From NCBI GenBank assembly GCA_048938445.1, contig JBHLME010000004.1:13976-77975 (forward strand): a stretch of 64,000 nt of DNA, written 5' to 3'. This document shows positions 27,975-48,677 of the stretch, in pieces. The translations under genes and the position numbers were made by a program. Origin of the DNA: Promethearchaeota archaeon. GTDB lineage: Archaea; Asgardarchaeota; Lokiarchaeia; Sigyniarchaeales; SOKP01. The notes beneath the pieces were generated by a model. That model worked only from the letters and a program-made list of their open reading frames with translations. It made no database searches and was not told where the DNA came from. The number at the start of each line of letters is the position of its first letter. The first letter of the stretch is position 1.

Positions 27975-28011
27975 AATAATATTCAAAAGTAATAATAAAC
28001 CAACAAATATT

Positions 28012-28401
28012 ATGACTCATTTAAATAGAATTATCGGAATACCTTCAGTCGGTCCTGAATTATTTGATAATATTTCAGAACATTTTGGACATTGTGAATA
28101 TTTTATTGGAGTAAGAATTGATGGTAATAATAAGTTAGAAAAAGCATTCACTCTACAAAATCAGGGGCATTCTGGATGTATGGAACCTGTAATAAATATG
28201 AAACAGAGGAGTGTTACAGATATGATTGTGGGGGGGATAGGAGGTCGGCCTTATATAGGTTTTATTCAAATGGGAATAAATCTCTATCAAGGTGTGGAAG
28301 GCAACCTAAGGAAGAATGTAGAATTATTATTAGAAGGAAAATTAAAGCCTTTAGGCGGACCAAGTTGTGGAAATAATTCTGAAGGTGCTCATGTTCATTA
28401 A
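28012..28401 (+). CDS. NifB/NifX family protein
   Basis: SEHFGHCEYF, HSGC, GGIGGRP. Confidence 0.88.
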   Translation: MTHLNRIIGIPSVGPELFDNISEHFGHCEYFIGVRIDGNNKLEKAFTLQNQGHSGCMEPVINMKQRSVTDMIVGGIGGRPYIGFIQMGINLYQGVEGNLRKNVELLLEGKLKPLGGPSCGNNSEGAHVH

Positions 28402-28439
28402 TTAATCTCGTAATTAATGAAATTAAAAATAAGAAAAAT

Positions 28440-28958
28440 GTGAAAAATATGCCAAGTTTTAAAGAAACATATGAAGCAATTAAAGCCGACTGGAATGCAG
28501 GGGAGAAGAACTTTAATATTGAATGTGAAATGCTTTCAGAAGGTATGCAAGTGAAATGTACTATGGGAAATCCCGCAGGAGATCCATTTGAGTTGTTAAT
28601 TGATGCTCCTGGAGGGTTAGATGGAACTAATAAAGGCCCATCTCCATTGTTGGTAATCTTATCATCCGTAGGCGCATGCATCGTAGCAGTTACCAAATTT
28701 TGGGCTAAGATCATGGATATTAAAATTGAAGAGTTAAAGGTATTTTCTCGTGGACACATAAATCTTGGTGCTATCTTTGGAATTGATGATTCTAAACTCG
28801 CGGGTTATGATAACCTTGAACCCGTAATAAGAATCAAGGCAGATGCGCCTGAAGAAAAGATTAACGAGTTAATGGATAAAGTGTTTTCCCATTGTCCAAT
28901 TATTACCAATATGGGTGGAGCTTCTCCCATTACACCTAAAGTCCAAATTAGAAAGTAA
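28440..28958 (+). CDS. OsmC family protein
   Basis: DAPGGLDGTNKGPSP...GAC and HCPI Cys pair. Confidence 0.85.
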   Translation: MKNMPSFKETYEAIKADWNAGEKNFNIECEMLSEGMQVKCTMGNPAGDPFELLIDAPGGLDGTNKGPSPLLVILSSVGACIVAVTKFWAKIMDIKIEELKVFSRGHINLGAIFGIDDSKLAGYDNLEPVIRIKADAPEEKINELMDKVFSHCPIITNMGGASPITPKVQIRK

Positions 28959-29014
28959 TTTGAAATCAAATAAATAAAAATTTTTAAATTTTTTTTTTTT
29001 TTGAGGTTAAAAAA

Positions 29015-29863
29015 ATGCAAAAAAATATTACTCCTGATGAAAAACAAAAAGTCATTGAGAAACGAGAAGAAAATATCAGAAAAAATCTTGAAAAGATTAA
29101 ACATAAATTAGTGGTTATCTCTGGTAAAGGAGGGGTTGGTAAGACTACTGTAGCGGTGAATCTTGCTATTAGTTTAGCTAGCATAGGCCATAGAGTAGGG
29201 ATCTTGGATGTCGACATTACAGGACCAAATGTATTAAAGATGTTAGGAGTCAATCCCGAATTAAAACCCGTAGTCGATCCTCAAAATGAAAAATTCTATC
29301 CCGTTAATGGTCCTTTAAATATGAAAGTAATGAGTATGGCTTTTTTATTAGCAGATCAGGATAGCCCAGTAATATGGAGAGGTCCCATGAAAATGACCGC
29401 GGTGAGACAATTTTTGGGTGATGCTGAATGGGGTGAACTTGATTATTTGATTTGTGACTTACCTCCGGGAACATCTGATGAAACATTAGATATTTTACAA
29501 TTAATACCAGATGAAAATGTAATAATCGTGTCAACACCTCAAGAAGTAGCTCTGATGGATGCCCGAAAGACAATTAATATGGCACAAGTCATGAAAAGGA
29601 ATGTTATAGGGATAATTGAAAATATGTCAGGATTCAAATGTTCTAAGTGTGGTTCATTCATAGAGATTTTTGGTAGTGGTGGAGCAGAGAAGGCTGCAAA
29701 AGATTTTGATATCAAATTATTAGGAAAGATTCCTTTTGAAACAGAGATAGGCCAGCAAGGCGACAAGGGGATACCATTTACGATAAAATATCCTGATTCT
29801 GAGAGTTCTAAAGCTTTTAGAAACATTATAAAAGTAATTCAAGAAATATTAGAAAAAAAATGA
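29015..29863 (+). CDS. mrp: Mrp/NBP35 (ApbC) Fe-S cluster carrier ATPase
   Basis: SGKGGVGKT, VIWRGPMK, DLPPGTSD, TPQEVA, ENMSGFKCSKC. Confidence 0.95.
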   Translation: MQKNITPDEKQKVIEKREENIRKNLEKIKHKLVVISGKGGVGKTTVAVNLAISLASIGHRVGILDVDITGPNVLKMLGVNPELKPVVDPQNEKFYPVNGPLNMKVMSMAFLLADQDSPVIWRGPMKMTAVRQFLGDAEWGELDYLICDLPPGTSDETLDILQLIPDENVIIVSTPQEVALMDARKTINMAQVMKRNVIGIIENMSGFKCSKCGSFIEIFGSGGAEKAAKDFDIKLLGKIPFETEIGQQGDKGIPFTIKYPDSESSKAFRNIIKVIQEILEKK

Positions 29864-29878
29864 TTAAATAAAAAGAGT

Positions 29879-30355
29879 GTGAATATTCTCGTGAAAAAAG
29901 ATTCTTTTGATGATTTTGTTGAAGAGCTACAACAAGAAATCATTGATAAAGAACTAGAAGATTATAATGAGTATATTGTAGAATTATTCCATAATCCAAA
30001 AAATTGGGGTAAACCCCCTGATGATGAAATTACCGTTTCTCAAACGTATTTAGGACCCTGTGGAGACACGATGCACTTCTTCTTGAAAATTAATGATAAT
30101 ATTATAGAAAATGCTCATTTTATAACAGATGGTTGTGGTGCTTCAGTTGCGACTGCAAGTCAAACCACACTCCTTATCAAGGGAAATTCAATAGAATTTG
30201 CTAAAAAATTGAAACCAGAAGATATTGATAAAGCTTTGAAAGGATTACCAGAAGATCATAAACATTGTGCTGAATTAGCCGTAAGAACTTTATCACGGGC
30301 AATAGATCAATATGAAATAAATTATAAAAAAAAAAAAATAAAATATAAAAAATAA
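29879..30355 (+). CDS. IscU/NifU-type Fe-S scaffold protein
   Basis: GPCGDTM, DGCGAS, KHCAELA conserved Cys triad. Confidence 0.9.
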   Translation: MNILVKKDSFDDFVEELQQEIIDKELEDYNEYIVELFHNPKNWGKPPDDEITVSQTYLGPCGDTMHFFLKINDNIIENAHFITDGCGASVATASQTTLLIKGNSIEFAKKLKPEDIDKALKGLPEDHKHCAELAVRTLSRAIDQYEINYKKKKIKYKK

Positions 30356-30376
30356 ATTAAAGAGGTAGAAAATAAG

Positions 30377-30814
30377 ATGGTTATAGTAGCCATACCTTCT
30401 AGTGGAGAAGGAGGTTTAAACGAAAGTATGAATCCCCGATTTGGACGCTGTCCTAGCTTTACATTAGTAACTATTGAAAATGGAGAGATAAAAGAAGTAA
30501 GGGGGGTCCCAAATAATGCCGCAAATTCGATGGGTGGAGCAGGAATCCAAGCAGCACAGACTATAGGGAATAATGGCGCGGAAGAAGTTATCGTTGGCTT
30601 TTTGGGACCAAATGCTGCTGAGTCTTTAAATGCAATGAATTTAAAGATATATCAAGCACCAAATCAACAATTAACGGTTAAAGATGTAGTAGATTTATAT
30701 TTAGAAGGATCACTTCAAGAACTAGATTCTGCAAATGTAGGTGCTCATCATGGTATGGGTGGAGGAATGGGGATGGGCAGCGGAATGGGCGGTGGAAGAA
30801 GAAGACAATTTTAA
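30377..30814 (+). CDS. NifB/NifX family protein with Gly/Met-rich tail
   Basis: PRFGRCPSF, GGAGIQAAQ, GPNA. Confidence 0.9.
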   Translation: MVIVAIPSSGEGGLNESMNPRFGRCPSFTLVTIENGEIKEVRGVPNNAANSMGGAGIQAAQTIGNNGAEEVIVGFLGPNAAESLNAMNLKIYQAPNQQLTVKDVVDLYLEGSLQELDSANVGAHHGMGGGMGMGSGMGGGRRRQF

Positions 30815-30846
30815 ACAAATAAGCAAAAATAAAATCAATTGAAATT

Positions 30847-31767
30847 ATGGTTAGAACTCCTAAAATTATTACTATTACAGGCGGTAAAGGAGGTACTGGT
30901 AAGACACTTTGTGCAGTTAATATTGCAACCATGTTTAAAAATGAAGGAAAAAAAGTTTTATTAATAGACGGTGATGTTGAAAATCCTAATACTTATTTAT
31001 TACTCGGTGGAACTTTACTAAATAAAAAGGAAGTACATTTCTTTAAACCTAATATTCTTAAAGATAAATGTACCAAATGTGGATTATGTGCAGAAAATTG
31101 TGCACCACATGCTCTCCTTTATTTAGAAAATGCGATACCAATCCCTATTTTAAGTGTATGTTCCGGTTGTAAATTATGTTATAAAATTTGTCCCTCTGAA
31201 GCAATTCTACCGGATAGTAAAATAATAGGATGGAAATATCAAACGAAAGTAAATCAAATCTCCTTGTTAATTGGTGAATTAAAACCATCAGAAGCCCGTT
31301 CAGCAGCAGTAGTTGATGCACTTTTACAAGATCTTGAAACCATTATTGATAATAATCCTGAGACCTATGATATAGTTATTTTAGATACGGCGCCAGGAGC
31401 TCACTGTGATGTGGAATTATTAATTGAGAAATCAGATTTTGTCATTCCTGTAACTGAACCAACTAAATTTGGAAAATTAGATTTATTACGGATAATTGAA
31501 TTGATTGAGCTATTACAAAAGGAATATAAAGTAATTGTGAATAGATCTTCGTTATTAGGGTATCGAGAACCGTTTTTGAGGGAATTATCCGAGAATAATA
31601 TTGAAACACTTGGAGATATCCCATTAGATGATGAGGTTGTCAAATCTTATTGCCAAGGAACACCATTAATGGACTCTGAAAGTGTTTTTAATAGAAAAGG
31701 AGATGCATATTTAGCTTTTATAAAAATTTTTGAAAATTTAAAATCTTGGATTAAAGACAATATTTAA
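30847..31767 (+). CDS. MinD-superfamily P-loop ATPase with inserted ferredoxin (COG1149)
   Basis: GGKGGTGKT, DVENPN, CTKCGLCAENC, CSGCKLCYKICP, DTAPGAHC, VTEPT. Confidence 0.92.
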   Translation: MVRTPKIITITGGKGGTGKTLCAVNIATMFKNEGKKVLLIDGDVENPNTYLLLGGTLLNKKEVHFFKPNILKDKCTKCGLCAENCAPHALLYLENAIPIPILSVCSGCKLCYKICPSEAILPDSKIIGWKYQTKVNQISLLIGELKPSEARSAAVVDALLQDLETIIDNNPETYDIVILDTAPGAHCDVELLIEKSDFVIPVTEPTKFGKLDLLRIIELIELLQKEYKVIVNRSSLLGYREPFLRELSENNIETLGDIPLDDEVVKSYCQGTPLMDSESVFNRKGDAYLAFIKIFENLKSWIKDNI

Positions 31768-31784
31768 ATGGTGACTAGTTTCTC

Positions 31785-32705
31785 ATGGAAAAAAAAATTA
31801 TAGCGGTCATTTCAGGAAAAGGTGGTGTTGGAAAAACATCTCTTACAGCATCTTTAGCAAGTTTGGCTTCTAATGAAATAAAGATTGCACCAATTATTTT
31901 AGATTGCGATGTAGATGCTCCAAATTTGGCTATAATTCTACCAGCAAGGTCAGAGAAGGAGATAGAATCAATTGATACTTATACTACTTTAAAAGCTGAA
32001 TTTATAGAAGATAAATGTGTTCAATGTAAAAAATGTATCGATGAGCATTTTTGTGAGTTTAATGCTTTAAGATGGGATGCTGAAAGTCAAATACCAAAAA
32101 TTGATTATTTAGCATGTGAAGGATGTGGAGCGTGTAAAGTATTATGCTCTGAGCATGCATTTAAAATTGATGCGGTTAAAAGTGGCGAAATCATCTCTTA
32201 TAAGATTAATACTGGTCATCCATTTGTATATGGAAAAACTAGGTTAGGAAGTACTACATCAGGGAAATTGGTGTCAGATATAAAAGAATATACTAAAAAT
32301 TTAAAAGAATTTAAGGAGAGTAATTTAATCATAATTGATGGTCCACCGGGTATAGGATGCCCCGTAATAGCTACTGTTTCGGGATTAGATTTCGTTATTA
32401 CGATTACTGAACCTACTCCATCAGGTCTTCATGACCTTATTAGAGCAATTGAAGTAGTACAGGAATTTAAAATCCCGTTTGGAATAGTCATTAACAAGTC
32501 TGATTTAAAAAGTCCTTTTCAAGAGAAATTTAATGAATATATAACTCAAACAGATTATACTTTAATCGGAAAAATTCCATATGATGTAAATATTCCTCGA
32601 GCCTTGTCATTTGCTAAACCAGTTGTTGATTTTGACCCAGATACAAATGCGAGCATCGCAATTAAAACAATTTATAAAAATTTAAAAAAGTTGTTATGGT
32701 CTTAA
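31785..32705 (+). CDS. MinD-superfamily P-loop ATPase with inserted ferredoxin (COG1149, second of pair)
   Basis: SGKGGVGKT, DCDVDAPN, CEGCGACKVLC, DGPPGIGCP, TEPTPSG. Confidence 0.92.
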   Translation: MEKKIIAVISGKGGVGKTSLTASLASLASNEIKIAPIILDCDVDAPNLAIILPARSEKEIESIDTYTTLKAEFIEDKCVQCKKCIDEHFCEFNALRWDAESQIPKIDYLACEGCGACKVLCSEHAFKIDAVKSGEIISYKINTGHPFVYGKTRLGSTTSGKLVSDIKEYTKNLKEFKESNLIIIDGPPGIGCPVIATVSGLDFVITITEPTPSGLHDLIRAIEVVQEFKIPFGIVINKSDLKSPFQEKFNEYITQTDYTLIGKIPYDVNIPRALSFAKPVVDFDPDTNASIAIKTIYKNLKKLLWS

Positions 32706-34373: not shown

Positions 34374-35384
34374 TTATAAAGCTTTAATCTTTTCTTGAAA
34401 AATAATTTTATTTCTTTTCTCTTCTATTAAATATAAAATATATTCATGATCTTGGGAAATATCCGGAAGTATGAATAATACTTCTTCACCTGGAAGCCAT
34501 TTTTCTATATTATCATAAAGAATCAATTGTTCAAAAAATTCATATAATGATGAGACCTTGATAATTATTTTATCGAATATATCTTTTGTTCGATTTGTTA
34601 TAATTATTTCTACTTCTTTTCTATCATTAATTACATTTATTTTATTTATTCTGAAAGGATTTTCGCTTTTATAATATAGATCTTGGACTTTAGGCTTATC
34701 AAATAATTTGATATTTGAGAATCCAATTTTTTTATCATTACTTACAATATAACTTATAGGAACTCCTTTTAATGAGAGATATGAAATTGCTTTTTGAATT
34801 TTTAAAATTGTTGTATCAGTTTTTTTTATTACCGATTGAAAATATTGCGAACAAATGTTTTTAATAAGTTTACTAATTCTTTTTTTTATCTTGTCTCCCC
34901 TTTCAATTAATTCTTTAGATTTTTGAGTTTTTATCATATCCAATTTTTCAATTTCAGCTCTAATCAATTCCGAAAGGTAAAATTTAAAATGTTTATTGAT
35001 TCTTTCTGTCATTTCTTTGATTAATGCACCACCAAAAATGTCCATCTCAATGGGTAATGCAAGAATTAATACTATAGTATCATAATTTTCTTCTTCTAAT
35101 CCCGCTCTTCTTTTAATTCGCTTTGAAGGAACTAAGAATTTTTTCGCAAAATACATTTTATCCCCATATTCCAAATCTACCCGATCAAGAGAGGTCTTAT
35201 CACTAAGATCTAAGAACCATATGGAATGGATCCGAAGTATGTGCATTTTTTCTTCATTTTTTTTTATAACATCCTCTGGACTTACTAAAATTGGAATATG
35301 ACCTAATTTCTCATCAAAATATAATAAAAAAACTTCACATAATTGTTCTGCTTGAATAATTTTTCGTTCATTCTCAGTTAACAT
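34374..35384 (-). CDS. hypothetical protein, possible N-terminal longin/uDENN-like domain
   Basis: VFLLYFDEKLGHIPILVSP opening motif; last gene of the hydrogenase operon. Confidence 0.6.
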   Translation of the reverse strand: MLTENERKIIQAEQLCEVFLLYFDEKLGHIPILVSPEDVIKKNEEKMHILRIHSIWFLDLSDKTSLDRVDLEYGDKMYFAKKFLVPSKRIKRRAGLEEENYDTIVLILALPIEMDIFGGALIKEMTERINKHFKFYLSELIRAEIEKLDMIKTQKSKELIERGDKIKKRISKLIKNICSQYFQSVIKKTDTTILKIQKAISYLSLKGVPISYIVSNDKKIGFSNIKLFDKPKVQDLYYKSENPFRINKINVINDRKEVEIIITNRTKDIFDKIIIKVSSLYEFFEQLILYDNIEKWLPGEEVLFILPDISQDHEYILYLIEEKRNKIIFQEKIKAL

Positions 35385-35426: not shown

Positions 35427-36728
35427 TTAATGTGTAGCACAAGAGATACAAGGATCAAATGCTCTTATCATCATTTGAATTTTTTTTTTTACAAATTGTA
35501 GATCTTTTTTTTCATATAATTTTTGAGCATATTGTGTAATCATTTTATTAATTAGTGGGAGATTTATTTCAGTGGCTATAAAAAGTTTTGCCTCTTCTAT
35601 AATTTTCTTATTATTTATGCGATAATGATGGATTAGCGTGCCTCTTGGAGCCTCAACAACTGCAATTCCATTTTGGTTTTTGATTGTAGATATTTCAGGG
35701 AGTGGAAAAGAATTCTTTAAAATCGGATCTTCCAAGAGATATAATGTTTTAATTACTTCAACATCCATTTCAATTAATCTTAAAAAATTAGCATATAAGA
35801 GATTGTTCCGCCATGATTTTTGAAAAAAATTGAGGTATGAGGAAATTTGATCCGTTCCATAACCTTCTATAATTTGATTTCGAGCTATTGGTCCGACTAT
35901 ATAATTTCTATTATTTTCAATGTTGAAATCAATTCCATGCAGATTAGGATCTTTGTCAAAATATGAGTTATAATGAATCTCGGAAAAATCTTCGTATTTA
36001 GTGTTGCTCTTTTTAAGTGTTAAAACACCCGCATACCTATCATAATCTTTATTCCTGTTTAATGCCAAATAATAGGGATTTGGAAGCATAAATTCTTCTG
36101 GAGGTGTAAATTGTGAAAAAATATTGATGAATTCTTCAATAATTGCTTCTAAAATAAACGATGATTTCTCAAGATATTTTTGGGCAATTTTTATGTTTTT
36201 TAATGAAGGTTGAAATATAGTACCTCCCGGTATGGGTGTTATTAAATGTATGGAACGGCCTCCGAAAAGAATATCAAGATCATTACCAATTTTTATTATA
36301 TCAAAGATATTTGAAGTTAATTGACTATTATATTTCAATAAATCATTTAAATTAAGAGTATTTTTACTTAAATTAAAGATTTCTAAAAGATCAGGAAATG
36401 ATTGAAAATAAAAATGCATCGCATGTGATTTTAACAACTCACCGACCATCAAGATGCGTCTTATAAAAACAGCTTGTTGATGAGGCTTGATATTATACAT
36501 TGTTTCTATAGTTTTACAGCTTACAATACTTTGTGATGCATGACATAATCCACATATTCTTGAAATTATTCTGGGAACATCTGTTATTTTTTTTCCTATA
36601 AGTAAATTTTCAAATCCTCTGTATGGTCCAATTTTAAATTCTACATGAGATATTTCATCATCTTTCATAAAAATTTCCAAATTTCCATGACCTTCGACTC
36701 TCATGCATACATCTACCACCTTTAGCAT
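35427..36728 (-). CDS. mvhA: [NiFe]-hydrogenase large subunit, group 3 (MvhA-like), no C-terminal extension
   Basis: RVEGHG, RGFE, L1 RICGLC, EAPRGTLIHHY, L2 DPCISCATH directly followed by TAA. Confidence 0.88.
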   Translation of the reverse strand: MLKVVDVCMRVEGHGNLEIFMKDDEISHVEFKIGPYRGFENLLIGKKITDVPRIISRICGLCHASQSIVSCKTIETMYNIKPHQQAVFIRRILMVGELLKSHAMHFYFQSFPDLLEIFNLSKNTLNLNDLLKYNSQLTSNIFDIIKIGNDLDILFGGRSIHLITPIPGGTIFQPSLKNIKIAQKYLEKSSFILEAIIEEFINIFSQFTPPEEFMLPNPYYLALNRNKDYDRYAGVLTLKKSNTKYEDFSEIHYNSYFDKDPNLHGIDFNIENNRNYIVGPIARNQIIEGYGTDQISSYLNFFQKSWRNNLLYANFLRLIEMDVEVIKTLYLLEDPILKNSFPLPEISTIKNQNGIAVVEAPRGTLIHHYRINNKKIIEEAKLFIATEINLPLINKMITQYAQKLYEKKDLQFVKKKIQMMIRAFDPCISCATH

Positions 36729-36729
36729 A

Positions 36730-37491
36730 TTATCGCCTCCAAATTTTTGGTTTTGAAAATCTATAGAATATGCCAGAATATTTTTTTAAATCTTTCACAA
36801 GATTAAGCAAACTTAAGAAATTAATTATACTCGAAGTAAAATCTCTTGAGACGGGTCCAAGACATCCTTCACATGGAATTCCTCGCTTTATGCATTCATG
36901 ATCACATCCCTCTCTAGTAATAGGTCCTAAGCACATAATTCCTCTACTTAAGAAGCAATTGGTATTTTCTTCATAATTATTGAGTTCAATATTGTGAGGA
37001 TATAGCTGATTAATCTGAGTAATCGGATTGAATTTAAAAGTAGTTTTGTAGGGACATTCTGAACATAAATTCTTTTTAGATAATTCAATATTTTTTCTCT
37101 CTAATAGTTTTATCAGACAATTTCCAAATAATTTTGACGGTGGAGGACAACCTGGTATGATTCCATCTATCTCTATAAAATCTGATAGAGGGGCGGCAAT
37201 CTTTTTTTTTGATAAACTTAAAATTCCTCCAAAAGCGGCACATGTCCCTAATGCGTATACTTTTTTTGTAGATATTCTTATATCTTTAAGAAAGTCAATC
37301 TGTGAATCCTCTGAAACACATCCTTCTATCAATGCTATATCACATAAATCTGCCCGAGGTTTATCAGATATAAAAGGAAAGTAAGATATTTCTGTTCTCT
37401 CTAGAAGTTGAGGAAAGATATCTAAGGAAATCAAAGAAGATATACAACCGCTACAAGATGTTAATGAGGTAATTAGAAATTTAAGTTTCAA
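36730..37491 (-). CDS. mvhG: [NiFe]-hydrogenase small subunit (MvhG-like)
   Basis: SCSGC, GTCAAFGG, PGCPP, CSECP, CFL..G.MCLGPITREGC...C...IPCEGCLGP. Confidence 0.88.
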   Translation of the reverse strand: MKLKFLITSLTSCSGCISSLISLDIFPQLLERTEISYFPFISDKPRADLCDIALIEGCVSEDSQIDFLKDIRISTKKVYALGTCAAFGGILSLSKKKIAAPLSDFIEIDGIIPGCPPPSKLFGNCLIKLLERKNIELSKKNLCSECPYKTTFKFNPITQINQLYPHNIELNNYEENTNCFLSRGIMCLGPITREGCDHECIKRGIPCEGCLGPVSRDFTSSIINFLSLLNLVKDLKKYSGIFYRFSKPKIWRR

Positions 37492-40027
37492 ATTTGTATT
37501 CCTCCTTTAATAGGTTATAAAATCTATTACTAATGTTTGAAAATTTTATTCCTTCTACAGCATTTAGGTTTTTAACAATTATATTCCTGCCTAACCTTGG
37601 CCCTAAGACCTTTTTTAATAATTGCACTTTTTTCTGTATTTTTTGAATGCCATCTAGATATCTGCAAGCATCTTTCCTACATCCAATAATCATTACTCCA
37701 TGAAATCCCCTTTCAAGAGCTCTTATTATGAAATTAGTATCAACCCGTCCGGTGCAAGGAACTCTAATGATAAATATATTGGGACGATAAAATTGTTTTT
37801 TAAGACCAGCATCATCGGCTGCAGCATACCCACAAGATTTACAGCAAAATGCTAAAATCTTAGGAGAAACGTTAAATTTTGAGTAAATGTCTATAGTTTT
37901 AAAAATCTTTTCATTGGTATCAATATTCATCTCAATAGCATTAGTTGGACAGACGCTTACACATGTTCCACATCCTTTACATTTAAATTTATCAATATTT
38001 ATTTTTTCCCCTTCAATCGTTATGGCATTGTATGGGCAAGCATTAACACACAATGAACAAAGTCCGCATCTTGTCTCATCAAGTTCTATCCCTGTGAATT
38101 CTGAAATTAAATAATCTTTCGATAGAAGTGATATTATTTTAAGTGCAACATTATTGGAAATATTTATTGTTGATTGATAGTTAAAAGGACCTAGTATTGT
38201 TCCAACTCCATAAATCCCTGAGGCCAATGTTTCTTCACTCATGAAACCGTTATCATTTAAAGTAAAATCAAGAGTTTTTCTGAGGGTTTTTAAATCCTTA
38301 TTGGGCATTAAATTGAGGTTCAAAATAATCAAATCACTTGGATATTCTTTTGAATCTGCAATCACTATATTTTCTTTATCATTTTTTTCTATTTTGACTT
38401 GTGAAACATAATGAACTCTTGAATCCATAGATTTCATAATTGGCTCATGGTTATGATGGAAATTTTTTAAATCATAAAAGGTATTTACGTGACAATCTGG
38501 GTTTTTTACTTTAATGCAATTTAAGTATTTTAGAGCAATATTATCTGCAAGTTCGGAATGATCGTGAGCAGGTCCAACATCCTGAATGATGGAGATGGAT
38601 TTTGGAGGTTTTCTATCAGATAATTTAACTATTTTACCTTCAGTAGGACCATCTGAAGATAATATCCTTTCAAATTCTACTGAAGTTATGATATTATCCT
38701 GAGGATTATAGTGATAATCTTTCAGATCTGAATATAAATCAGCACCTATAGCGATAACTTTCACACCCACTTTAATTTTAATTTCCTCTGGTTTTTGAGT
38801 TAAATCTATGGCTTTATTCACGCACGCTCTTTCACAAATCCTACAATTTAAGCAATTTTTAATATCAATTTCTTCTATTAAAGGAGCATAGGGATATGAA
38901 TTTTGAAAAGGAAGAAAAATTACTTTCCTGTTTACAAGATTAAACTCATATTGATTGGGTTTTTCCACACTGCATACTTCTATACATTGTTTGCATCCAG
39001 TACATTTTTTTTCATCTACAAAGCGAGGTTTTTTAATTAAATTTATGGCGAAATTGCCGACTTCACCAGAAACACTCTTTATTTCCGTATTAGTGAATAT
39101 TTCAATGTTTTTTTCTTTTACAATTTCTCCTATCAATTCTGAAATGAAACATATTGAGCAATCCCCCATTTTATAGATTCTATGCCACCGTGCCACTTTT
39201 CCTCCTAAAGTTGGAGATTTTTCAATTAAATACACTTTAATACCTGCTCTCGCCAAATTTAAACCTAAGGTCATTCCTGCTATACCCCCTCCTAATATAG
39301 CACAGCTTTTTTCAACCTCAACTCTTTTTACTTTAATTTCTTTTTGCAGATATATACGCTCGACAGCGGCTTCGATTAATAATTGTGCCTTTTTTAAAAT
39401 CAGAGCTGAATCATCTTTGCTATTAATCATTTGATGCACCCAACAACATTGTTCTCTAATATTTGCTATTTCAAGATTAGATCGATCGATTAATCCCTCA
39501 AAAATCCTTTCAAAAACATGTTGATGTGTCTTGGGAGAACATGCCGCAATTACGATTTTATTCAAGAAGTTTTCTTTAACCCAATTGGAAATTTTATCCA
39601 AATTTTTCTCTTGACATAAATTTTCAAATATCTTTACTGAAACAACATTTTGTATTTTATTGATATAGTTCTCTAAAGCGTTGATGTTAATTGTATTAGA
39701 AATTTCAGTATTACAGTTGCAAATAATCACTCCAATTCGATTTATTTCACTGCCTTTTGAATTAAGATATTCTATTTCTTCTCCTGATAAAATTCTTTTA
39801 TTTATATTAAGAATTTTTAAAATTCTTTTACCATCTTCAGTTAAAAAATATGATTTTTTATCTTTACCAATAAGAGAACCGAGTTTTCTTAGGTGGAAAT
39901 TTAATTGTCCTGTTTGATCTAAACCCAATTTATCCATTAAATCTGTGTATGGTATGTAACCCTCTTTTTCAAGGAGTAGTAAAATTTTTCTTCTAAACTC
40001 ATGAGACAATATTGAGTATATATCCAT
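37481..40027 (-). CDS. fusion of ArsR-like winged HTH, HdrA-like flavoprotein and MvhD domain
   Basis: aa ~1-80 LSHEFRRKILLLL..YTDLM..L....GQLNFHLRKL...YFLTEDGK; HdrA region ICNC, AACSPKTH, NIREQCCWVH, GGGIAG and four ferredoxin motifs; C-terminal FCCKSCGYAAAD, RVPCTGRVD, GCRKDACRY. Confidence 0.9.
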   Translation of the reverse strand: MDIYSILSHEFRRKILLLLEKEGYIPYTDLMDKLGLDQTGQLNFHLRKLGSLIGKDKKSYFLTEDGKRILKILNINKRILSGEEIEYLNSKGSEINRIGVIICNCNTEISNTININALENYINKIQNVVSVKIFENLCQEKNLDKISNWVKENFLNKIVIAACSPKTHQHVFERIFEGLIDRSNLEIANIREQCCWVHQMINSKDDSALILKKAQLLIEAAVERIYLQKEIKVKRVEVEKSCAILGGGIAGMTLGLNLARAGIKVYLIEKSPTLGGKVARWHRIYKMGDCSICFISELIGEIVKEKNIEIFTNTEIKSVSGEVGNFAINLIKKPRFVDEKKCTGCKQCIEVCSVEKPNQYEFNLVNRKVIFLPFQNSYPYAPLIEEIDIKNCLNCRICERACVNKAIDLTQKPEEIKIKVGVKVIAIGADLYSDLKDYHYNPQDNIITSVEFERILSSDGPTEGKIVKLSDRKPPKSISIIQDVGPAHDHSELADNIALKYLNCIKVKNPDCHVNTFYDLKNFHHNHEPIMKSMDSRVHYVSQVKIEKNDKENIVIADSKEYPSDLIILNLNLMPNKDLKTLRKTLDFTLNDNGFMSEETLASGIYGVGTILGPFNYQSTINISNNVALKIISLLSKDYLISEFTGIELDETRCGLCSLCVNACPYNAITIEGEKINIDKFKCKGCGTCVSVCPTNAIEMNIDTNEKIFKTIDIYSKFNVSPKILAFCCKSCGYAAADDAGLKKQFYRPNIFIIRVPCTGRVDTNFIIRALERGFHGVMIIGCRKDACRYLDGIQKIQKKVQLLKKVLGPRLGRNIIVKNLNAVEGIKFSNISNRFYNLLKEEYKFET

Positions 40028-40148
40028 TTTTTCATCCCTTCCACCAATTAAAGGATTATTTTTTTTTGAAAAATTAAATTTTTAAAAAAAATAATTTTGA
40101 AAATTTTTTTTATCGAACTATTTTCACTAAGATATTAATAATATGAAT

Positions 40149-40187
40149 AATATTTAAATATTTTGGTTAAATCCGAAAAATATTCGA
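40149..40187. promoter_or_regulatory. conserved AATATTTAAATATT-N2-GGTT-N4/5-CCGAA-N5-TTCGA element, copy 1
   Basis: Same element at 51765-51804 and 54936-54975, each in a divergent intergenic region. Confidence 0.7.
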
Positions 40188-40271
40188 TAAATATATAAGT
40201 TACTTCAAATTATATTCTATTATTAGTTAGTAGAATTTGAATAACTAATAAAGTTGTTAAAAAATAAACTT

Positions 40272-40325
40272 TGACAATTAGATTTATCAAACCAAATGAA
40301 ATTCTTGTTGTCATTTTGTTTAAAT
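40272..40325 (+). promoter_or_regulatory. TGAYAA-N6-TTATCA...TTRTCA-N5-TTTAAAT promoter, copy 1
   Basis: Identical spacing at 45290-45343 and 45882-45935. Confidence 0.7.
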
Positions 40326-40383
40326 CTCTTAAAAAGATTCTTTACATAGGATATTAAATACCATAAAAATAGTTAAAACTGAG

Positions 40384-41010
40384 GTGGAAAGTCGAATGGA
40401 AGTGCTTGAATTAAAGCCGTTGAAAAAAAAAAGAGTTTGCGCATATGTTGCCAAGAAAAAAAAAGATGATTTTAATGATTTTTATCTGGATAAATTAAGA
40501 GATTTTATTATTAGGAAAAAAATTGACTTTATAACAATCGATTTCAATGTGGATATGAAAGAGTTTAATGATTCAGAACTTGCAAAAACATTAAATGAGA
40601 TGAATATTAGATATTTTCAAGTGGACATACCAGAATATGCAATGGGATATATCTATCAAGAAATTGTAGAAAAAACTGAACTACTAAATGATTTATGTGG
40701 AGAATTTGAATCAATGAAAGAAAAAGATACTTTAAAAGGAGAAAGTCTAAAAAATTGGATAGATGTATTGAGAGAAGATATTCAAGAAAAAGAAATATAC
40801 ATTAGTTTGAGATTAAGACCACAATGGATTGTCAAAAAAATGTTAGATATTGCTAAAACCATTAAAACTGAAGAGGTATCTTTACTTCATCTCGTCCAGG
40901 CAGACATATGCGAGGATATTTGTAATCAAGTTACAGAATATTTAAGAGAATTAGACGTGAAAGTTGTTCAATATACTAAAAAACATAATATAATAAATGT
41001 AGAATTTTAA
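40384..41010 (+). CDS. hypothetical protein, local paralog family member 1
   Basis: VLELKPLKKK N-terminus shared with 41032; YFQVDIP plus coiled coil with L..W motif shared with 41032, 45401 and 45995; likely start is the ATG at 40396. Confidence 0.8.
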   Translation: MESRMEVLELKPLKKKRVCAYVAKKKKDDFNDFYLDKLRDFIIRKKIDFITIDFNVDMKEFNDSELAKTLNEMNIRYFQVDIPEYAMGYIYQEIVEKTELLNDLCGEFESMKEKDTLKGESLKNWIDVLREDIQEKEIYISLRLRPQWIVKKMLDIAKTIKTEEVSLLHLVQADICEDICNQVTEYLRELDVKVVQYTKKHNIINVEF

Positions 41011-41031: not shown

Positions 41032-41763
41032 ATGCCAAAAGTATTAGAATTAAAACCATTGAAGAAAAAACACCTAAAACTGATTATGGTTGAAAGCGAA
41101 TTTCCGGTTGAGTGGTGGTTTGAGGCTCCAAAAAGAGCAAAAGAAGATTTAGTCTGGAATTTACATTTAATATCTAAGGAATATCTTCAAGTTATTGAAG
41201 AATTAATTAATAAATATAAACCAGACTTCGGAACGGAAGAAAAACCAGCGAATTGGGATGATTCACCAAATCAAATAGATCCATTAGAGGAACTATTCAA
41301 ACTAAAAAATATTTCCTTCCAACATGTAGATATTGATGATAACGCTAGAGATTATTTATCATCTGCATTGGATGAACATAGATCTACTATAAAAAAATTA
41401 GAAAACAGAATTCGAGAAATAATGGAAAAAAATGGAGTTATTCCTGAAAATGATGAATTATTTCAAAGATTAGTTCTGTGGAAAGAATATTTAGAACAAG
41501 ATTATGAACAACAAGAAGATGAAGTTCGCTATAATATTAGAGAAGCTTGGATGATGATGAATATCATAAATCTTGCAAAAAATATTGATGGAACAAAACT
41601 CAAAGGATTATTCATATGTGATCTACGACATTTCAATGGAATTGAAAAACTCGCAAGTGAATTAAATATAGACATTGAGAAAATAAAAATTAAGAGATCT
41701 ATTAAAACTGAGGATGTTGAAGAGGAGCTAGAAAAAAATGTCGAAATTGAAGTTAAAGAATAA
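41032..41763 (+). CDS. hypothetical protein, local paralog family member 2 (possible TraB/ChaN-like fold)
   Basis: KYKPDFGTEE, FQHVDID, IREAWMMMNII, LFICDLRHFNGI; GAGGTTGA SD. Confidence 0.8.
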   Translation: MPKVLELKPLKKKHLKLIMVESEFPVEWWFEAPKRAKEDLVWNLHLISKEYLQVIEELINKYKPDFGTEEKPANWDDSPNQIDPLEELFKLKNISFQHVDIDDNARDYLSSALDEHRSTIKKLENRIREIMEKNGVIPENDELFQRLVLWKEYLEQDYEQQEDEVRYNIREAWMMMNIINLAKNIDGTKLKGLFICDLRHFNGIEKLASELNIDIEKIKIKRSIKTEDVEEELEKNVEIEVKE

Positions 41764-41777
41764 TTAATTTAGAGAAT

Positions 41778-42794
41778 ATGAGGAGGAAAATAAAAATGCA
41801 AAAAGAAGATCTGGAAAAAAAAGTACATTCTATTCTTGGAAGAAAATCTATTATTGAATTAACTCCAATAGTTATAAAAAAAAAAGAAACATCCGATAAA
41901 ATCTGTTACTTCTTTGATACTGATGAAAATGCTTCTCCTTTTGACATTAATATGGCCTATGATGCTGGTTTTGATATTGTGGTTCCAATTAGTAGGATGA
42001 CTGCTGATCAAGTTCCCAAACTCGTTCAAGATGCAATTTTTTCTAGGAAACCAAATGCTCCCACAACATTTTTTATAGGGGGGTCCAATGTTAAAGAAGG
42101 TGAAAAAATAGCCAAAAAAGTCTTAAAGTCTTTAGTACCACCCTTTGAATGCCCTGTTATTATCGATCCAAGAGGTTCACACACAACAGCTTCAGCAGTC
42201 GTCGCAATGACAATTGATGTTGCTCTAAAATTTCATAATATTAAAGATTTAAAAGGCAAAAAAATAGTAGTATTTGGAGCGGGGCCTGTTGGAAGGATTG
42301 CAGCTATTTTGGGAGCAAAAATTGGAGCTGATACGTGCATTGTGGAAACTTGGGATAAATCAAGCCAAGATTTTATCACGAATTTAGCAAATGAATTGAA
42401 AGAAGAAGCAGGTAAGGGTGCAACTGCTATTAAGGGAATATTTGCCCCAAATCTCGAAGATCGAGAGAATTTAGCTATTGATGCTGATATTATATGGTCT
42501 TTAGCAGCAGCAGGAATTGAAATTTTGTCAGAAAATTTAATGAAAAAATTGCGCGGAAAGAAAATTGTGGTAGATATAAATCTTGTCCCACCTTATGGCA
42601 TAGAAGGCATTAAGCCAAAACATTATAACGAAGAACTTTATCCTGGGATGTTTTGTATCGGTGCATTAGCGTTAGGTAGATTGAAATCTAATTCTGAGAG
42701 TGAAATTTTAAAAGAAGCCGCTAATACCAAGGGATCAAAAGTATTTGACTATAATTATGCATTTGAAGTTGCTAAAAAGCTTTTAAATAAATAA
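41778..42794 (+). CDS. NAD(P)-dependent methylene-H4MPT dehydrogenase-like protein (MtdA/MtdB family)
   Basis: SPFDINMAYDAGFD, VQDAIFSR, DPRGSHTTASA, GAGPVG, DINLVPPYGIEG, IGALALGRLK. Confidence 0.85.
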   Translation: MRRKIKMQKEDLEKKVHSILGRKSIIELTPIVIKKKETSDKICYFFDTDENASPFDINMAYDAGFDIVVPISRMTADQVPKLVQDAIFSRKPNAPTTFFIGGSNVKEGEKIAKKVLKSLVPPFECPVIIDPRGSHTTASAVVAMTIDVALKFHNIKDLKGKKIVVFGAGPVGRIAAILGAKIGADTCIVETWDKSSQDFITNLANELKEEAGKGATAIKGIFAPNLEDRENLAIDADIIWSLAAAGIEILSENLMKKLRGKKIVVDINLVPPYGIEGIKPKHYNEELYPGMFCIGALALGRLKSNSESEILKEAANTKGSKVFDYNYAFEVAKKLLNK

Positions 42795-45157: not shown

Positions 45158-45289
45158 TTTTTAAACCTCCACCCCTTTTTTATTAATAATAAAATGCATT
45201 TAGATAAGATATTGAAAATAATTTAACTTTTAAAACGTTAATTGACTCCGTAAATTTAAAAGACTATTTTTTTTATTAAAATGGAATTT

Positions 45290-45343
45290 AGATAATTAAA
45301 ATTATCAAATTGATAAAAATTTTTCTTATCAAACTATTTAAAT
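45290..45343 (+). promoter_or_regulatory. TGAYAA-N6-TTATCA...TTRTCA-N5-TTTAAAT promoter, copy 2
   Basis: AGATAA-TTAAAA-TTATCA, TTATCA at +36, TTTAAAT at +47. Confidence 0.6.
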
Positions 45344-45400: not shown

Positions 45401-45667
45401 GTGAATAAATATATGGAGACCATAACAAGAGTGGAAATGGATCAACTTATTGGTGGAAGGGTAAATAATTCTGATGCAGAATTTCGCTCTGAATTTCTGA
45501 AGGGATATTTATGGGCTGAAATTGACAAACAAGAGCAATTTATAGAAAAACTCAGCCAAGAACTTAAATCTATGAAAAATAGAGACTCTTTTGATGCCCA
45601 ATACCTTGAGACATGGATTGAGTCCTTAAAAATTGATCTTGAAAAAGAAAAACAATTATTAAAATAA
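45401..45667 (+). CDS. small coiled-coil protein, local paralog family member 3
   Basis: KGYLWAEIDKQEQFIEKL..ELKSMKNRDSFDAQYLETWIESLK aligns with MGYIYQEIVEKTELLNDL..EFESMKEKDTLKGESLKNWIDVLR of 40384. Confidence 0.75.
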   Translation: MNKYMETITRVEMDQLIGGRVNNSDAEFRSEFLKGYLWAEIDKQEQFIEKLSQELKSMKNRDSFDAQYLETWIESLKIDLEKEKQLLK

Positions 45668-45881
45668 TTTTTTTTCCTGCTTTTTTTCCAAAAATTAATA
45701 TAATGAAAAAGGATTTGGTATAGATTCTAAATTAAAACTTTTACTTTAATTTGCATATTAATTTACATATAATTAACAAAGAATGAGATTAAAATAGATA
45801 ATAAATAATGATATAAAATTTAAAAATTATCTAATTTGTTTTTGGTATTTATTCTGATTATCCTAGTTTATTATAAAAAAA

Positions 45882-45935
45882 TGACAATAAAAATTATCAA
45901 AATTATGAAAAGGAAAATTGTCATTTTGTTTAAAT
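45882..45935 (+). promoter_or_regulatory. TGAYAA-N6-TTATCA...TTRTCA-N5-TTTAAAT promoter, copy 3
   Basis: TGACAA-TAAAAA-TTATCA, then TTGTCATTTTGTTTAAAT identical to 40308-40325. Confidence 0.7.
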
Positions 45936-45994: not shown

Positions 45995-46585
45995 TTGGTA
46001 GCTATAAATAATCGAGCAAGGTTAAAAAAAAACTTAATAATATATTTAGTCGGATTTGAGAATAATAGCACAAAATTTGAAAATTTAAAAGAAATATTTT
46101 GGTTATTCAAGGATAGGTTGGTTAATTACGCAACATTCTATATTGCTGATGACAATTCTATATTATGGCAAGATTCTCCTCTTCCAGATTTATTAAAATC
46201 ATATAATATTCCTTATTTTGAAATAGAAATTCCTAAACAAACAAAAATGTTTTTTGATGATAAAGTTCAAACAATTAAAAAATATATGACTAAGGATTTG
46301 CACGAATATAATCTTTTAGTTGATAAAAATTGTGCTAGAGGTCGTTATTTAAAATTTTGGAAGGAATTATATGAAAATGAACTCAAAGAAATTAAACGGT
46401 TTTTTGAATATAAAATTATACCAGTTTACATAGCAGAATCTATATTAGAAAAACTTGAAGGAATGTTAGATGAAGATTTATTGTTGTTGCATTTTGGTGA
46501 GATAAGTACTTTTGGAGAAATAATGAAAGTAGTAAAACATGTTAATTCAAAAATTGATATCTCCTATATACACTATATGAGCTAG
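45995..46585 (+). CDS. hypothetical protein, local paralog family member 4
   Basis: IPYFEIEIP, RYLKFWKE and LLLLHF motifs parallel 40384/41032; GAGGTG SD before a TTG start. Confidence 0.75.
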   Translation: MVAINNRARLKKNLIIYLVGFENNSTKFENLKEIFWLFKDRLVNYATFYIADDNSILWQDSPLPDLLKSYNIPYFEIEIPKQTKMFFDDKVQTIKKYMTKDLHEYNLLVDKNCARGRYLKFWKELYENELKEIKRFFEYKIIPVYIAESILEKLEGMLDEDLLLLHFGEISTFGEIMKVVKHVNSKIDISYIHYMS

Positions 46586-46736: not shown

Positions 46737-48677
46737 ATGGATACAAAGGATAAAAGTCGAATTTTCGTAGCTATCTGTCAATGAGGATTAAATATCACGG
46801 AAGTAATTGAATGTAAGACTTTAGCAGATTATACAAAAAATCTTCCTAATATTGTAGGCAGTGGGAGTTATATCAGTCTCTGTACTGCTTCGGGATCATC
46901 ATTTATTCAGCAAAATATTGAGTCCACTAAAGCCAATCGATTGATTATTGTTGCTTGAACGCCAAAGACACATGAGCCTGTTTTTAAAACAATATTAAAA
47001 AATATTGGAATTGATTCATCTTATTTAGAATTTGTAAATATAAGGGAACATTCCTCATTTGTCCATAGAAACGATAAGAATGGTGCATTGAATGTAGCAA
47101 AAGATCTTATTAGAGGAGCAATTGCTAGAGCCGCAAATTTAGAGAAAATTGCTATTAAAAAAATCGATTTAACTAAAAAAATATTAATAATAGGTGCTGG
47201 AGTAGCCGGATTATCAGCAGCAATAGATTTAGCGAATTTAGGTTTTGATGTGAATATCGTTGAAAAAAGACCTAGCATTGGGGGTCTTATGGCTAAACTT
47301 GATAGAACCTTTCCTACGGATGATTGTAGTATTTGAATATTAGGGCCGATTATGTTAAAAGTAGCGAATATTCCTAACATTCAATTGTTTACATATACAG
47401 ATATTGAAGATATTTCAGGTCATATTGGAAATTTTAAAATTCTTATAAAACAAAAAGCAAGATATGTTACTAATGATTGCAATGGATGCGGAGCCTGCGT
47501 AGAAGCGTGTCCTGCATATGGATTTGATGAATTTAATGAAAATCTCAACTCAAGAAGGGCAATATATATTTATTTTGCTCAAGCGGTACCTTTAACAGCT
47601 CAAATAGATATGGAACGTTGTATAAATTGTAAATTATGAATAGATTCTTGTGAATTGAATGCTATTGATTTTAATCAGAAGGATGTATTTACAAATTTAA
47701 ATGTGGGGTCAATAATTGTTACAACCGGTCTCGATGTTCATAAAGGAAGAGAATATGGCAGAGGAAAATATCAAAACATATTAACTCAGCTTGAATTGGA
47801 AAGAATATTGGCTCCAAATGGACCAACTTCTGGACATTTAGTAAGACCTTCTGATGGAAAGCGACCTAAGAAAATATTATTTATAAATTGAGCTGGCTCA
47901 AGAGATCGTAATAGTCATCCCTATTGTAGCGTTGTATGCTGTAATTTATCCGTAAAAAACTCAAAATTAATAAAAACAGAATACCCTGATACAGAAATAG
48001 TTGTAAGTTTTATAGATATGAGATGTGCTGGAAAGGACTATGAAGAATATTATAATAGAGCAAGAGATTGTGGAATAATATTTCTTAGGGGTCATGTTGG
48101 AAAAATAAAAGAAGATCCTACAACAAAAGACCTACTCGTACAAATTGAAGCCTTTAATATGGAACACTACTTGGAAATGAAATTTGAACTTATTGTGTTG
48201 TCTTCAGCGTCAATTCCTTCAAAATATGCAAAAAAAATAAAAAAAATCTTAGCTTTGGAAACAAGCAGAGATGGATTTTTTAAAGAAGTTCATTCACGTT
48301 TAAATTTAATCGATACTAAAATTCCAGGAATTTGCATTGCAGGAGCTGCACAAGGCCCAAAGTCAATACCAGAAGCGATAATTCAGGGAAGAGCTGCAGC
48401 ATCTTCTTTGTCGGGTATTATGAATAAGGATAAATATGAAATACTTCTCATTCGAGGATATATAGATAATCATTTATGCTCGAAATGTGGATTATGTCAA
48501 TTAAATTGTCCTTACAATGCAATTACAATAAATAATAATCATGCTGAAGTCAATGAGATTACTTGTAAGGGATGTGGAACTTGTTTAGCAAATTGTCCAT
48601 CCGAAGCGATAACACTAAAATATTATAGAGAAGCTCAATATGAAGAACAAATTGATGCTATACTATTTGAATCGTAG
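46737..48677 (+). CDS. hdrA: heterodisulfide reductase subunit A, selenoprotein with five in-frame TGA (Sec) codons, 646 aa
   Basis: Single frame from ATG 46737 to TAG 48677; TGA at 46782, 46956, 47334, 47637 and 47889 in contexts ICQ*G, VA*TPKTHE, TDDCSI*ILGP, CINCKL*IDSC and FIN*AGSRD, all conserved HdrA Cys positions. Confidence 0.92.

Follow-up and report, generated by a model that had tools for sequence, protein, structure and literature searches.

A winged-helix HdrA-MvhD fusion in an Asgard [NiFe] hydrogenase operon and the palindrome that accompanies it

The fusion protein and its winged helix

H2 metabolism is central to models of Asgard syntrophy and of the origin of the eukaryotic cell. 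To our knowledge, almost nothing is known about how H2 is sensed in Asgard archaea, or how the genes for their hydrogenases and the Wood-Ljungdahl pathway are regulated. Here we describe a locus in a stretch of 64,000 nucleotides (nt) from a Promethearchaeota archaeon (assembly GCA_048938445.1, contig JBHLME010000004.1, positions 13,976 to 77,975), called the window below, to which all positions refer unless another contig or locus is named. The window is AT-rich (GC 0.22-0.35 over 30-47 kb). On its reverse strand lies a gene for a protein that joins a winged helix-turn-helix (wHTH) domain to an HdrA-like body and an MvhD domain, and the genes of two [NiFe] hydrogenase subunits follow. The likeliest of the readings that we weigh, though one held only tentatively, is that this fusion is a hydrogenase-coupled transcription regulator that probably still transfers electrons, much like a trigger enzyme, with DNA binding and redox control predicted from sequence. 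The fusion and its partners are laid out as follows (aa, amino acids).

37481-40027, reverse strand: wHTH-HdrA-MvhD fusion gene, 848 aa (open reading frame, Pfam, NCBIfam, structure alignments)
39788-40027, reverse strand: residues 1-80, predicted N-terminal ArsR-type winged helix-turn-helix (Pfam DUF7347, AF2 topology, profile and Foldseek)
39740-39787, reverse strand: residues 81-96, linker, with low model confidence at 83-93 and G82 invariant
37892-39739, reverse strand: residues 97-712, HdrA-like body (NCBIfam, structure and orthologue alignment)
38540-38584, reverse strand: residues 482-496, degenerate site of the thioredoxin-reductase-domain [4Fe-4S] cluster, QDVGPAHDHSELADN (alignments)
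37505-37867, reverse strand: residues 721-841, MvhD/FlpD domain with six invariant cysteines (Pfam, structure and orthologue alignment)
36730-37491, reverse strand: mvhG, [NiFe] hydrogenase small subunit, 253 aa, TTG start, 11-nt overlap with the fusion gene
35427-36728, reverse strand: mvhA, large subunit, 433 aa, ending at the His of DPCISCATH without a C-terminal extension

An earlier note on this DNA had read the 848-residue protein as an ArsR-like domain, an HdrA-like body and MvhD, overlapping mvhG by 11 nt. Pfam, NCBIfam and structure alignments bear out this order, and the gene coordinates (36730-37491 and 37481-40027) the overlap. DUF7347, the Pfam model of the winged helix, covers residues 2-71 (E 6.3e-11, 42.8 bits against a cut-off of 27.6), and FlpD/MvhD (PF02662) covers residues 724-841 (E 5.2e-31, 107.6 bits against 22.3); Pfam also finds an FAD Rossmann motif at about 244-283 and two ferredoxin regions. 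The best NCBIfam model is that of HdrA2, the HdrA-MvhD fusion type, over residues 97-841, with scores under the curated cut-offs both for HdrA2 (584 bits against 1100) and for the HdrA models (435 and 374 against 1300 and 1400). Residues 94-712 align with Methanothermobacter HdrA (8rvu_a, E 3e-115) and residues 721-840 with MvhD (5odc_D, E 8e-22), the identity to solved HdrA being 33-38%. The HdrA-like body consists of an N-terminal iron-sulfur domain, an FAD domain, and inserted and C-terminal ferredoxin domains, and the AlphaFold model of the whole fusion has a pLDDT of 86.9. In public databases the protein is annotated as 'hydrogenase iron-sulfur subunit' (NCBI) or 'FAD-dependent oxidoreductase', and some entries begin 30 residues later (816-821 aa), a matter of start-codon choice.

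By model and profile, the winged helix has a repressor-type fold of the ArsR/MarR kind. AlphaFold places helix a1 at residues 10-22, a2 at 27-33, the recognition helix at 39-52, a two-strand wing at 53-62 and a long helix at 64-80. Modelled alone, residues 1-95 have a pLDDT of 87.3, with 85-97 over the wHTH topology; the linker of the fusion falls below 50 at residues 83-93. A complex prediction for two copies of residues 1-95 scored 0.34 against a mark of 0.42. A profile of 15 orthologous domains matches the ArsR-like 1y0u_A (E 5e-6) and PagR (E 0.015). All Foldseek neighbours are winged-helix regulators (CadC, YodB, SarZ, NolR-DNA, QsrR-DNA and HlyU; TM 0.55-0.72), taken as fold neighbours only, since their E-values are weak (best 2.1e-3, none <=1e-3). 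TGQLNFHL is invariant in the recognition helix of close orthologues, and down to 34% overall identity G40, N43, H45 and L46 remain invariant and T39 and L42 nearly so (T-G-x-L-N-F/Y-H-L). The domain has a net charge of +1 to +6 across 15 sequences, but charge does not discriminate, as the remainder of the protein is basic too.

The protein might instead be an enzyme subunit only, whose winged helix serves structure, dimerisation or the docking of a partner, with a separate regulator binding the palindromes described below. We consider this unlikely. Conservation of G82 and of the helix that follows the wing would suit a packing element, and the NCBI name is simply that of an iron-sulfur subunit. 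However, the recognition helix is the best-conserved part of the domain down to the identity given above, and the top structural neighbours are all DNA-binding regulators.

DUF7347 has six further matches in the same genome, four of them above the family cut-off. An N-terminal DUF7347 winged helix is also found on a large protein with a 665-aa open frame at about 4300-6300 of contig C64 (reverse strand, locus L011).

Distribution, age and the lost cluster

At least 120 relatives of the fusion at 67-85% identity were found among 5.8 billion proteins, nearly all of 840-855 aa and with DUF7347. The 120 listed are labelled Promethearchaeota, Loki-, Hod-, Hermod-, Thor- or Odinarchaeota. Of the 150 best matches among 1.84 billion cluster representatives, six align from the first residues onward, one of them from Bathyarchaeia; three of the six, P0124-P0126, are full-length proteins with 34-40% identity, and a fourth, P0129, is a partial record with 41%. 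With residues 1-240 as query, about 120 of 400 Asgard genomes (a hand count of listed rows), from at least eight families, show the winged helix joined without a break to the HdrA N-domain. All 34 shorter proteins that share the wHTH look like contig-end fragments of the fusion. Mis-assembly, or a gene-calling fusion of a small regulator with hdrA, has practically no probability, as an unbroken frame of the same length is found on more than 100 independent contigs, complete chromosomes among them. An assembly artefact or a peculiarity of one genome, either of which would have undone the earlier note, is ruled out by these contigs together with the roughly 120 Asgard genomes and the Bathyarchaeia.

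The earlier note knew of no description of this architecture. We likewise found no published account of an HTH-HdrA-MvhD protein in the literature on HdrA, Asgard hydrogenases and DUF7347 (no papers for the last), a search that did not cover supplementary fusion tables. The HdrA fusion types in the available parts of PMC12054007 and PMC11237513 are MvhD fusions and doubled HdrA, and no HTH is mentioned there.

A quick maximum-likelihood tree sets the 32 wHTH-bearing proteins apart by a branch that has 100% support in the Shimodaira-Hasegawa-like approximate likelihood ratio test (SH-aLRT), a grouping that is favoured by the wHTH columns included in the alignment. The 24 proteins without CSxxCC nest within this set, beside eight that keep it. 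These are the ligands of the one [4Fe-4S] cluster that the fusion lacks; all other cofactor ligands are intact. Where 8rvu_a has IHCVGSRDEQ..KPYCSRVCC, the fusion has IIQDVGPAHDH..SELADNIA. None of 18 aligned orthologues holds the CSxxCC ligands, the first Cys alone being left in three, and this stretch is the least conserved part of the protein. CxGxRD...CSxxCC is absent in 24/24 Loki-type sequences and present in 8/8 deeper wHTH-bearing ones. Because these deeper branches keep the lost ligands, the sequences place the fusion before the loss of the cluster.

Invariant in the 18 sequences are the four N-terminal cysteines C103, C105, C138 and C163, the DCSIC pair C290 and C293 (Cys197 type), 16 ferredoxin cysteines (eight inserted and eight C-terminal), the six MvhD cysteines (C728, C729, C732, C758, C783 and C788), GGGIAG, E269 and G275/G276, and also K500 and E451/E453, which probably map to the FAD-N5 pair K409/E356 of PMC12054007. 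The earlier note had the cofactor sites largely right: the N-terminal cluster cysteines, GGGIAG and the ferredoxin motifs are kept throughout the orthologues, and the QCVGSRD...YCSxxCC ligands are gone both there and in comparison with 8rvu_a. It had however described the second FAD segment as eroded, whereas G604, G609, G613 and P614 of this segment are in fact conserved.

According to PMC9012536, electrons leave for HdrBC through the iron-sulfur cluster of the thioredoxin-reductase domain, and Cys197 sets an obligate HdrA dimer. In PMC13580544 and PMC12350162, the cluster that hands the high-potential electron to HdrB is called 'HA4', and we infer that the two names stand for one cluster. 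With the cluster that feeds HdrBC lost, the Loki-type protein would be unable to run classical heterodisulfide-coupled bifurcation.

The hydrogenase genes stay with the fusion. We compared 36 close loci from species-representative genomes, 20 more distant Asgard loci and three loci from Bathyarchaeia. In close loci that are long enough, mvhG follows the fusion in 33/33 and mvhA in 32/32; the triplet is also present in each of the 18 distant loci that reach beyond the stop of the fusion, the sequence of L069 and L070 breaking off within it or at its end, and in 3/3 from Bathyarchaeia. The translated MvhA holds the nickel-site motifs RICGLCHxxQ and DPCISCATH, and MvhG is a small subunit with three cysteine sets for iron-sulfur clusters. 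DPCxxCxxH is kept in 46/49 loci, the three f28 loci differing at the aligned end, and in 29/29 Loki-type loci the stop follows directly after its His; solved MvhA is 25 residues longer. MvhA scores 158 bits with the NCBIfam VhuA model (cut-off 800), and its best relatives in the PDB, 7t2r_D and 5odc_F, are group 3 enzymes. Membership of group 2b was not supported, the nearest solved relatives being of group 3 in a comparison that held no direct group-2b reference. hdrBC is not part of the conserved operon in close or distant loci, with hdrBC-like neighbours only in some, and in the 36 close loci the conserved operon has no acceptor module. An FrhB-like gene lies directly upstream on the same strand in 14/34 loci. 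A divergent up208-up243-up338-cdc48 cluster, as in the window, is present at 12/36; in the distant clades the genes after mvhA on the same strand are up243 and the up338 homologue, often joined into a single protein of about 560 aa. Elsewhere in the genome of the window, on contig C158, a canonical VhuG-VhuA-HdrC-HdrB cluster stands beside Fwd genes and a free MvhD, and its VhuA reaches 473 bits.

This pattern could be that of a dedicated one-component H2/redox sensor, the reading of the earlier note. Hydrogenase and HdrA-MvhD would then have given up metabolic flux and would only signal H2 to the winged helix, much as regulatory hydrogenases signal to a kinase, a view that we find less likely still than an enzyme subunit without DNA binding. 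In its favour are the loss of the HdrBC outlet cluster across the Loki-type clade, a conserved operon without an acceptor module, the canonical cluster on another contig with a VhuA of 473 rather than 158 bits, and an MvhA that ends at the DPCxxCxxH His in all Loki-type loci. H2-sensing hydrogenases also lack the C-terminal tail of the large subunit. The evidence from the palindrome, given below, serves this view as well as it serves a regulator that still transfers electrons. Yet every other cofactor ligand is invariant, including those of the inserted ferredoxin domain, the electron exit in Hdr; in many genomes FrhB-like and up243/MtdA-like genes directly adjoin the operon on the same strand; and MvhA resembles group 3, not the sensor group. 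Moreover, the winged helix and the palindrome also occur in clades that keep the cluster ligands, so that the regulation would not have arisen through loss of the cluster. Taken with the invariant cofactor sites and the FrhB-like and up243/MtdA-like neighbours, continued electron transfer appears at least as likely as a pure sensor.

Several further Hdr and hydrogenase genes were seen. A second hdrA (47088-48677, forward strand) reads through if three in-frame TGA codons encode selenocysteine, which would then stand at canonical Cys positions (DCSIU, CINCKLU, FINUAGSRD). It keeps the U/C-AGSRD..CSVVCC that the fusion has lost, its N-terminal end may lie further upstream, and a gene for an HdrC-like 2x[4Fe-4S] protein follows (48845-49351, forward strand). 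MvhD/FlpD matches occur at 14 places in this genome, four of them with two TGA codons in frame and several embedded in frames 790-1170 aa long, a very large set of Hdr/MvhD paralogues. The canonical cluster (C158:3442-14822, locus L072) comprises the free MvhD, two polyferredoxins, FwdD/B/C, FdhD, VhuG (466 aa), VhuA, HdrC and HdrB, and a MarR-type regulator (RrpA-like) lies within it.

The palindrome and its linked genes

The upstream regions of the orthologues share the palindrome TTGAYAA-N6-TTRTCAA, which is followed about 21 nt on by a third half-site, TTRTCA. The copies in the window and the genes linked to them are the following.

40271-40290, no strand: perfect palindromic candidate operator TTGACAA-N6-TTATCAA in the divergent intergenic region
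40308-40325, forward strand: third half-site TTGTCA (40308-40313) and TATA-like TTTAAAT (40319-40325), up208 promoter
40100-40160, reverse strand: putative own promoter of the fusion, TATA-like TTTAAATA near 40152-40159
40384-41010, forward strand: up208, protein without assigned family, likely true start ATG 40396, paralogue of up243/orf88/orf196
41032-41763, forward strand: up243, Asgard protein without assigned family, fused to an MtdA-like protein in other genomes
41778-42794, forward strand: up338, MtdA-like NADP-type methylene-H4MPT/H4F dehydrogenase homologue, 338 aa (structure matches)
45289-45308, no strand: candidate operator copy with 1 mismatch, 112 nt before orf88
45401-45667, forward strand: orf88, short up208-family paralogue behind the operator copy
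45881-45900, no strand: candidate operator copy with 1 mismatch, 114 nt before orf196
45995-46585, forward strand: orf196, up208-family paralogue behind the operator copy

Of ten matches in the window, the best three sit 112-114 nt before three paralogous genes, and the only perfect one (40271-40290) is 113 nt before the start of up208. The palindrome thus falls within or adjoining the places that the earlier note had singled out for binding (40030-40380, 45290 and 45882). At the own promoter of the fusion, as seen in orthologues, it begins 4-5 nt past the TATA box; at the divergent promoter (up208/up243-mtdA-like) it lies upstream of the TATA box.

The palindrome is enriched at these loci. 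In the 499 kb of the 36 close loci, the strict 18-bp inverted repeat was found 36 times against about 0.7 by a rough composition estimate, and the 16-bp core 44 times against 4.3 in shuffles (maximum 13 over 100 shuffles). The 20 distant loci (174 kb, GC 0.26-0.62) gave 26 cores against 1.0 shuffled (maximum 4 over 200). Five whole genomes hold 26 sites of the 18-bp pattern, 9 of them within 11 kb of the fusion, and 9 sites in all of a control pattern. A core match lies upstream of the fusion operon in 27 of 33 close loci with enough sequence; among the distant loci, 12 have it ahead of the fusion and six directly in front of up243. The palindrome accompanies the fusion operon as the neighbourhoods change, and it marks the promoters of the operon and of the linked genes even in clades whose proteins are only 36% identical, at 10 to 50 times the frequency expected by chance.

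In the genome of the window, one perfect and 25 one-mismatch copies of the 20-bp palindrome were counted against a composition estimate of about 27. We have therefore set aside a large genome-wide regulon, since these 26 sites are close to what is expected, and a site count so near to composition points to a local regulon. None of the contigs that carry the six other DUF7347 matches has a site with <=1 mismatch.

The linked promoter allows a comparison between genomes. The up208-up243/mtdA promoter has the element (<=1 mismatch) in 12/12 fusion-bearing genomes. Five of eight genomes picked as fusion-less lack it and have a different promoter; G185, G211 and G215 were classed as such by the N-terminal query only, and G189 carries a fragment of the fusion. 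The five without the element count against a separate regulator at the palindromes and an enzyme subunit without DNA binding, as does the way in which the element accompanies the fusion operon through different neighbourhoods over a GC range of 0.26 to 0.62. On the other side stand two genomes with the operator but no fusion found (G256 and G172, below), the six other DUF7347 matches of the genome of the window and the MarR-type regulator beside its canonical hydrogenase.

Further observations weigh against regulation by the fusion itself. The element is present at the up208-up243 promoter of two assemblies in which we could find no Loki-type fusion, G256 (99% complete, in 320 contigs) and G172 (81%); in these, either some other factor occupies the site or the fusion gene is missing from the assembly. 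No strict palindrome was found upstream of the fusion in the f28 loci or in 3/3 loci from Bathyarchaeia. In the genome of the window, the operator at the own promoter of the fusion is degenerate, and the one intact site is that in the shared intergenic region, 243 nt upstream. The locus sequences are related, and the operator counts therefore overstate independence. Residues 1-95 of 15 sequences contain no cysteine, and neither a metal- or thiol-sensing site nor any other obvious sensor site was found in the domain. Some enzymes, moreover, use an N-terminal winged helix for dimerisation.

A different pattern is present in L076, L077, L079 and L081 (genomes G179, G185, G190 and G215), where TGATCAT repeats flanked by GTAGATT...AATCTAC stand upstream of up243-mtdA without the GACAA palindrome; this may be the site of another regulator.

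The genes linked to the operator copies have no Pfam or NCBIfam match (up208, up243, orf88 and orf196). They are four paralogues of an Asgard-specific family, three of which share the arrangement and distance of operator and TATA box. In the protein atlas, up243 yields only Asgard hypothetical clusters and a weak TraB/GumN lead (0.82) that we have not used for function. up338 is homologous to MtdA over its full length (6tge_A, 1lu9_A, E ~1e-28). The up243 domain is fused to the MtdA-like dehydrogenase elsewhere (L063:531-2225, L052:304-1986 and many frames of 556-577 aa), with Mpt_N at residues ~270-350 of the fused protein of about 560 aa. Because of this fusion in other Asgard genomes, a Rosetta-stone link, the window genes 41032-41763 and 41778-42794 seem to act together.

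Proposed mechanism, precedents and neighbouring genes

We propose that the fusion, MvhG and MvhA form a divergent three-subunit group-3 [NiFe] hydrogenase, in which the fusion would be the flavin/iron-sulfur subunit and would double as the transcription regulator of its own operon. An HdrA dimer would carry two ArsR-type winged helices on linkers of about 15 residues from its N-terminal domains, and the paired helices would bind TTGAYAA-N6-TTRTCAA. At the fusion promoter, the site just downstream of the TATA box would be a repressor position. Electrons from H2 would reach the FAD by way of MvhA, MvhG and MvhD, or else ferredoxin would supply them at the inserted ferredoxin domain, and their entry could change the geometry of the two winged helices and with it DNA binding. 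In the Loki-type protein, residual electron flow might run between H2, FAD and ferredoxin, or to another partner. In solved Hdr complexes a mobile arm that includes the N-terminal domain swings with the redox cycle, according to PMC13580544 and PMC12350162. Electron input could for this reason alter winged-helix geometry and DNA binding, and the arm swing is, by analogy, a plausible switch; the signal path from the redox chain to the winged helix is conjecture.

A regulator that still transfers electrons ranks first among the readings, because fusion and operator predate the loss of the cluster and the other cofactor sites are kept; an enzyme with a winged helix that does not bind DNA comes second and a dedicated sensor last. 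The earlier note had seen here a scaffold repurposed as a transcription factor. What stands of this is an old and widespread fusion, tied to mvhGA, with a predicted repressor-type winged helix and an accompanying palindrome. The idea that cluster loss did the repurposing falls, as winged helix and operator are also present in deeper clades that keep the ligands, and the other cofactor sites are invariant. A bolder form of the regulator, possible but rather doubtful, is a one-component H2 sensor in which MvhD and the HdrA flavoprotein hard-wire the [NiFe] hydrogenase to a DNA-binding domain that is part of the same polypeptide. The arm swing would set the spacing of the winged helices and so switch operator binding. 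If true, this would couple ambient H2 or the ferredoxin redox state directly to the expression of the hydrogenase and of the MtdA-like dehydrogenase of the C1 pathway.

Control of transcription by a hydrogenase or by a metabolic enzyme has precedents. H2-sensing [NiFe] hydrogenases of group 2b signal through a separate histidine kinase and response regulator (HoxJ/HoxA, HupT/HupR). The idea is the same, a hydrogenase electron chain that leads to transcription, and their large subunit likewise lacks the C-terminal extension; here, however, a group-3 enzyme would bear the DNA-binding domain on its own subunit. The trigger enzymes PutA and BirA have a fused DNA-binding domain and autoregulate, and the function of PutA is switched by the redox state of its flavin, but their folds and chemistry are unrelated to those of the fusion. 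We know of no trigger enzyme linked to a hydrogenase, and of no other hydrogenase with a DNA-binding domain of its own. ArsR/SmtB and MarR/DUF24 repressors (1y0u, CadC 1u2w, NolR 4omy, YodB 5hs9) share the predicted fold and the H-L-x-x-L signature of the recognition helix. They are stand-alone dimers on palindromes, whereas the winged helix here is fused to a redox protein of 750 residues and lacks metal- or thiol-sensing residues.

On the side of the enzymes, HdrA2 or type Ia HdrA (Methanosarcina HdrA2B2C2), a type described in PMC12054007 and PMC11237513, has the same domain order and likewise a fused MvhD. In contrast to HdrA2, the fusion has an additional N-terminal winged helix, lacks the cluster ligands of the thioredoxin-reductase domain, has no hdrBC in its operon and is tied to mvhGA, not to F420H2 oxidation. 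The MvhADG-HdrABC complex of methanogens (5ODC, 8RVU, 9SW2-6) has homologues of MvhA, MvhG, MvhD and HdrA, with the Cys pair and the FAD site in common; unlike it, the locus has no HdrBC route, a fused MvhD, an MvhA without the tail and a short MvhG (253 aa). Thus HdrA-MvhD fusions, MvhADG-HdrABC, H2-sensing hydrogenases and trigger enzymes are already known. What appears to be new, as far as the literature search given above reaches, is a hydrogenase subunit with a predicted repressor-type domain of its own and a matching candidate operator.

The locus offers a concrete and widely conserved candidate for H2/redox control of genes, with a 95-residue domain, a 20-bp candidate operator and defined target genes that would include the MtdA-like homologue. 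Asgard archaea may in this way tie the expression of genes directly to hydrogen or to redox state. There is also a consequence for annotation: what metabolic reconstructions list as Asgard 'MvhADG-HdrABC' includes, in many genomes, an HdrA that would be unable to feed HdrBC.

The genes around the operon vary. A 336-aa gene after mvhA (34374-35384, reverse strand) has no Pfam or NCBIfam match and is conserved only in the subclade of the window (8 loci). In some other loci it is replaced by a gene for a HATPase_c protein, a histidine-kinase-like ATPase of 351-353 aa (L041:12708-13769, L036:12685-13740). In one locus from Bathyarchaeia (L073:510-4629), genes for a NuoF-like (FMN/NADH-binding), a NuoG-like 2Fe-2S and a hydrogenase-small-subunit-like protein precede the triplet on the same strand, which hints at a link to NAD(H). 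Finally, the translations of 27567-32705 (forward strand) show a series of small open reading frames, together with three P-loop proteins that contain GKGGxGKT motifs as well as Cys-rich inserts.

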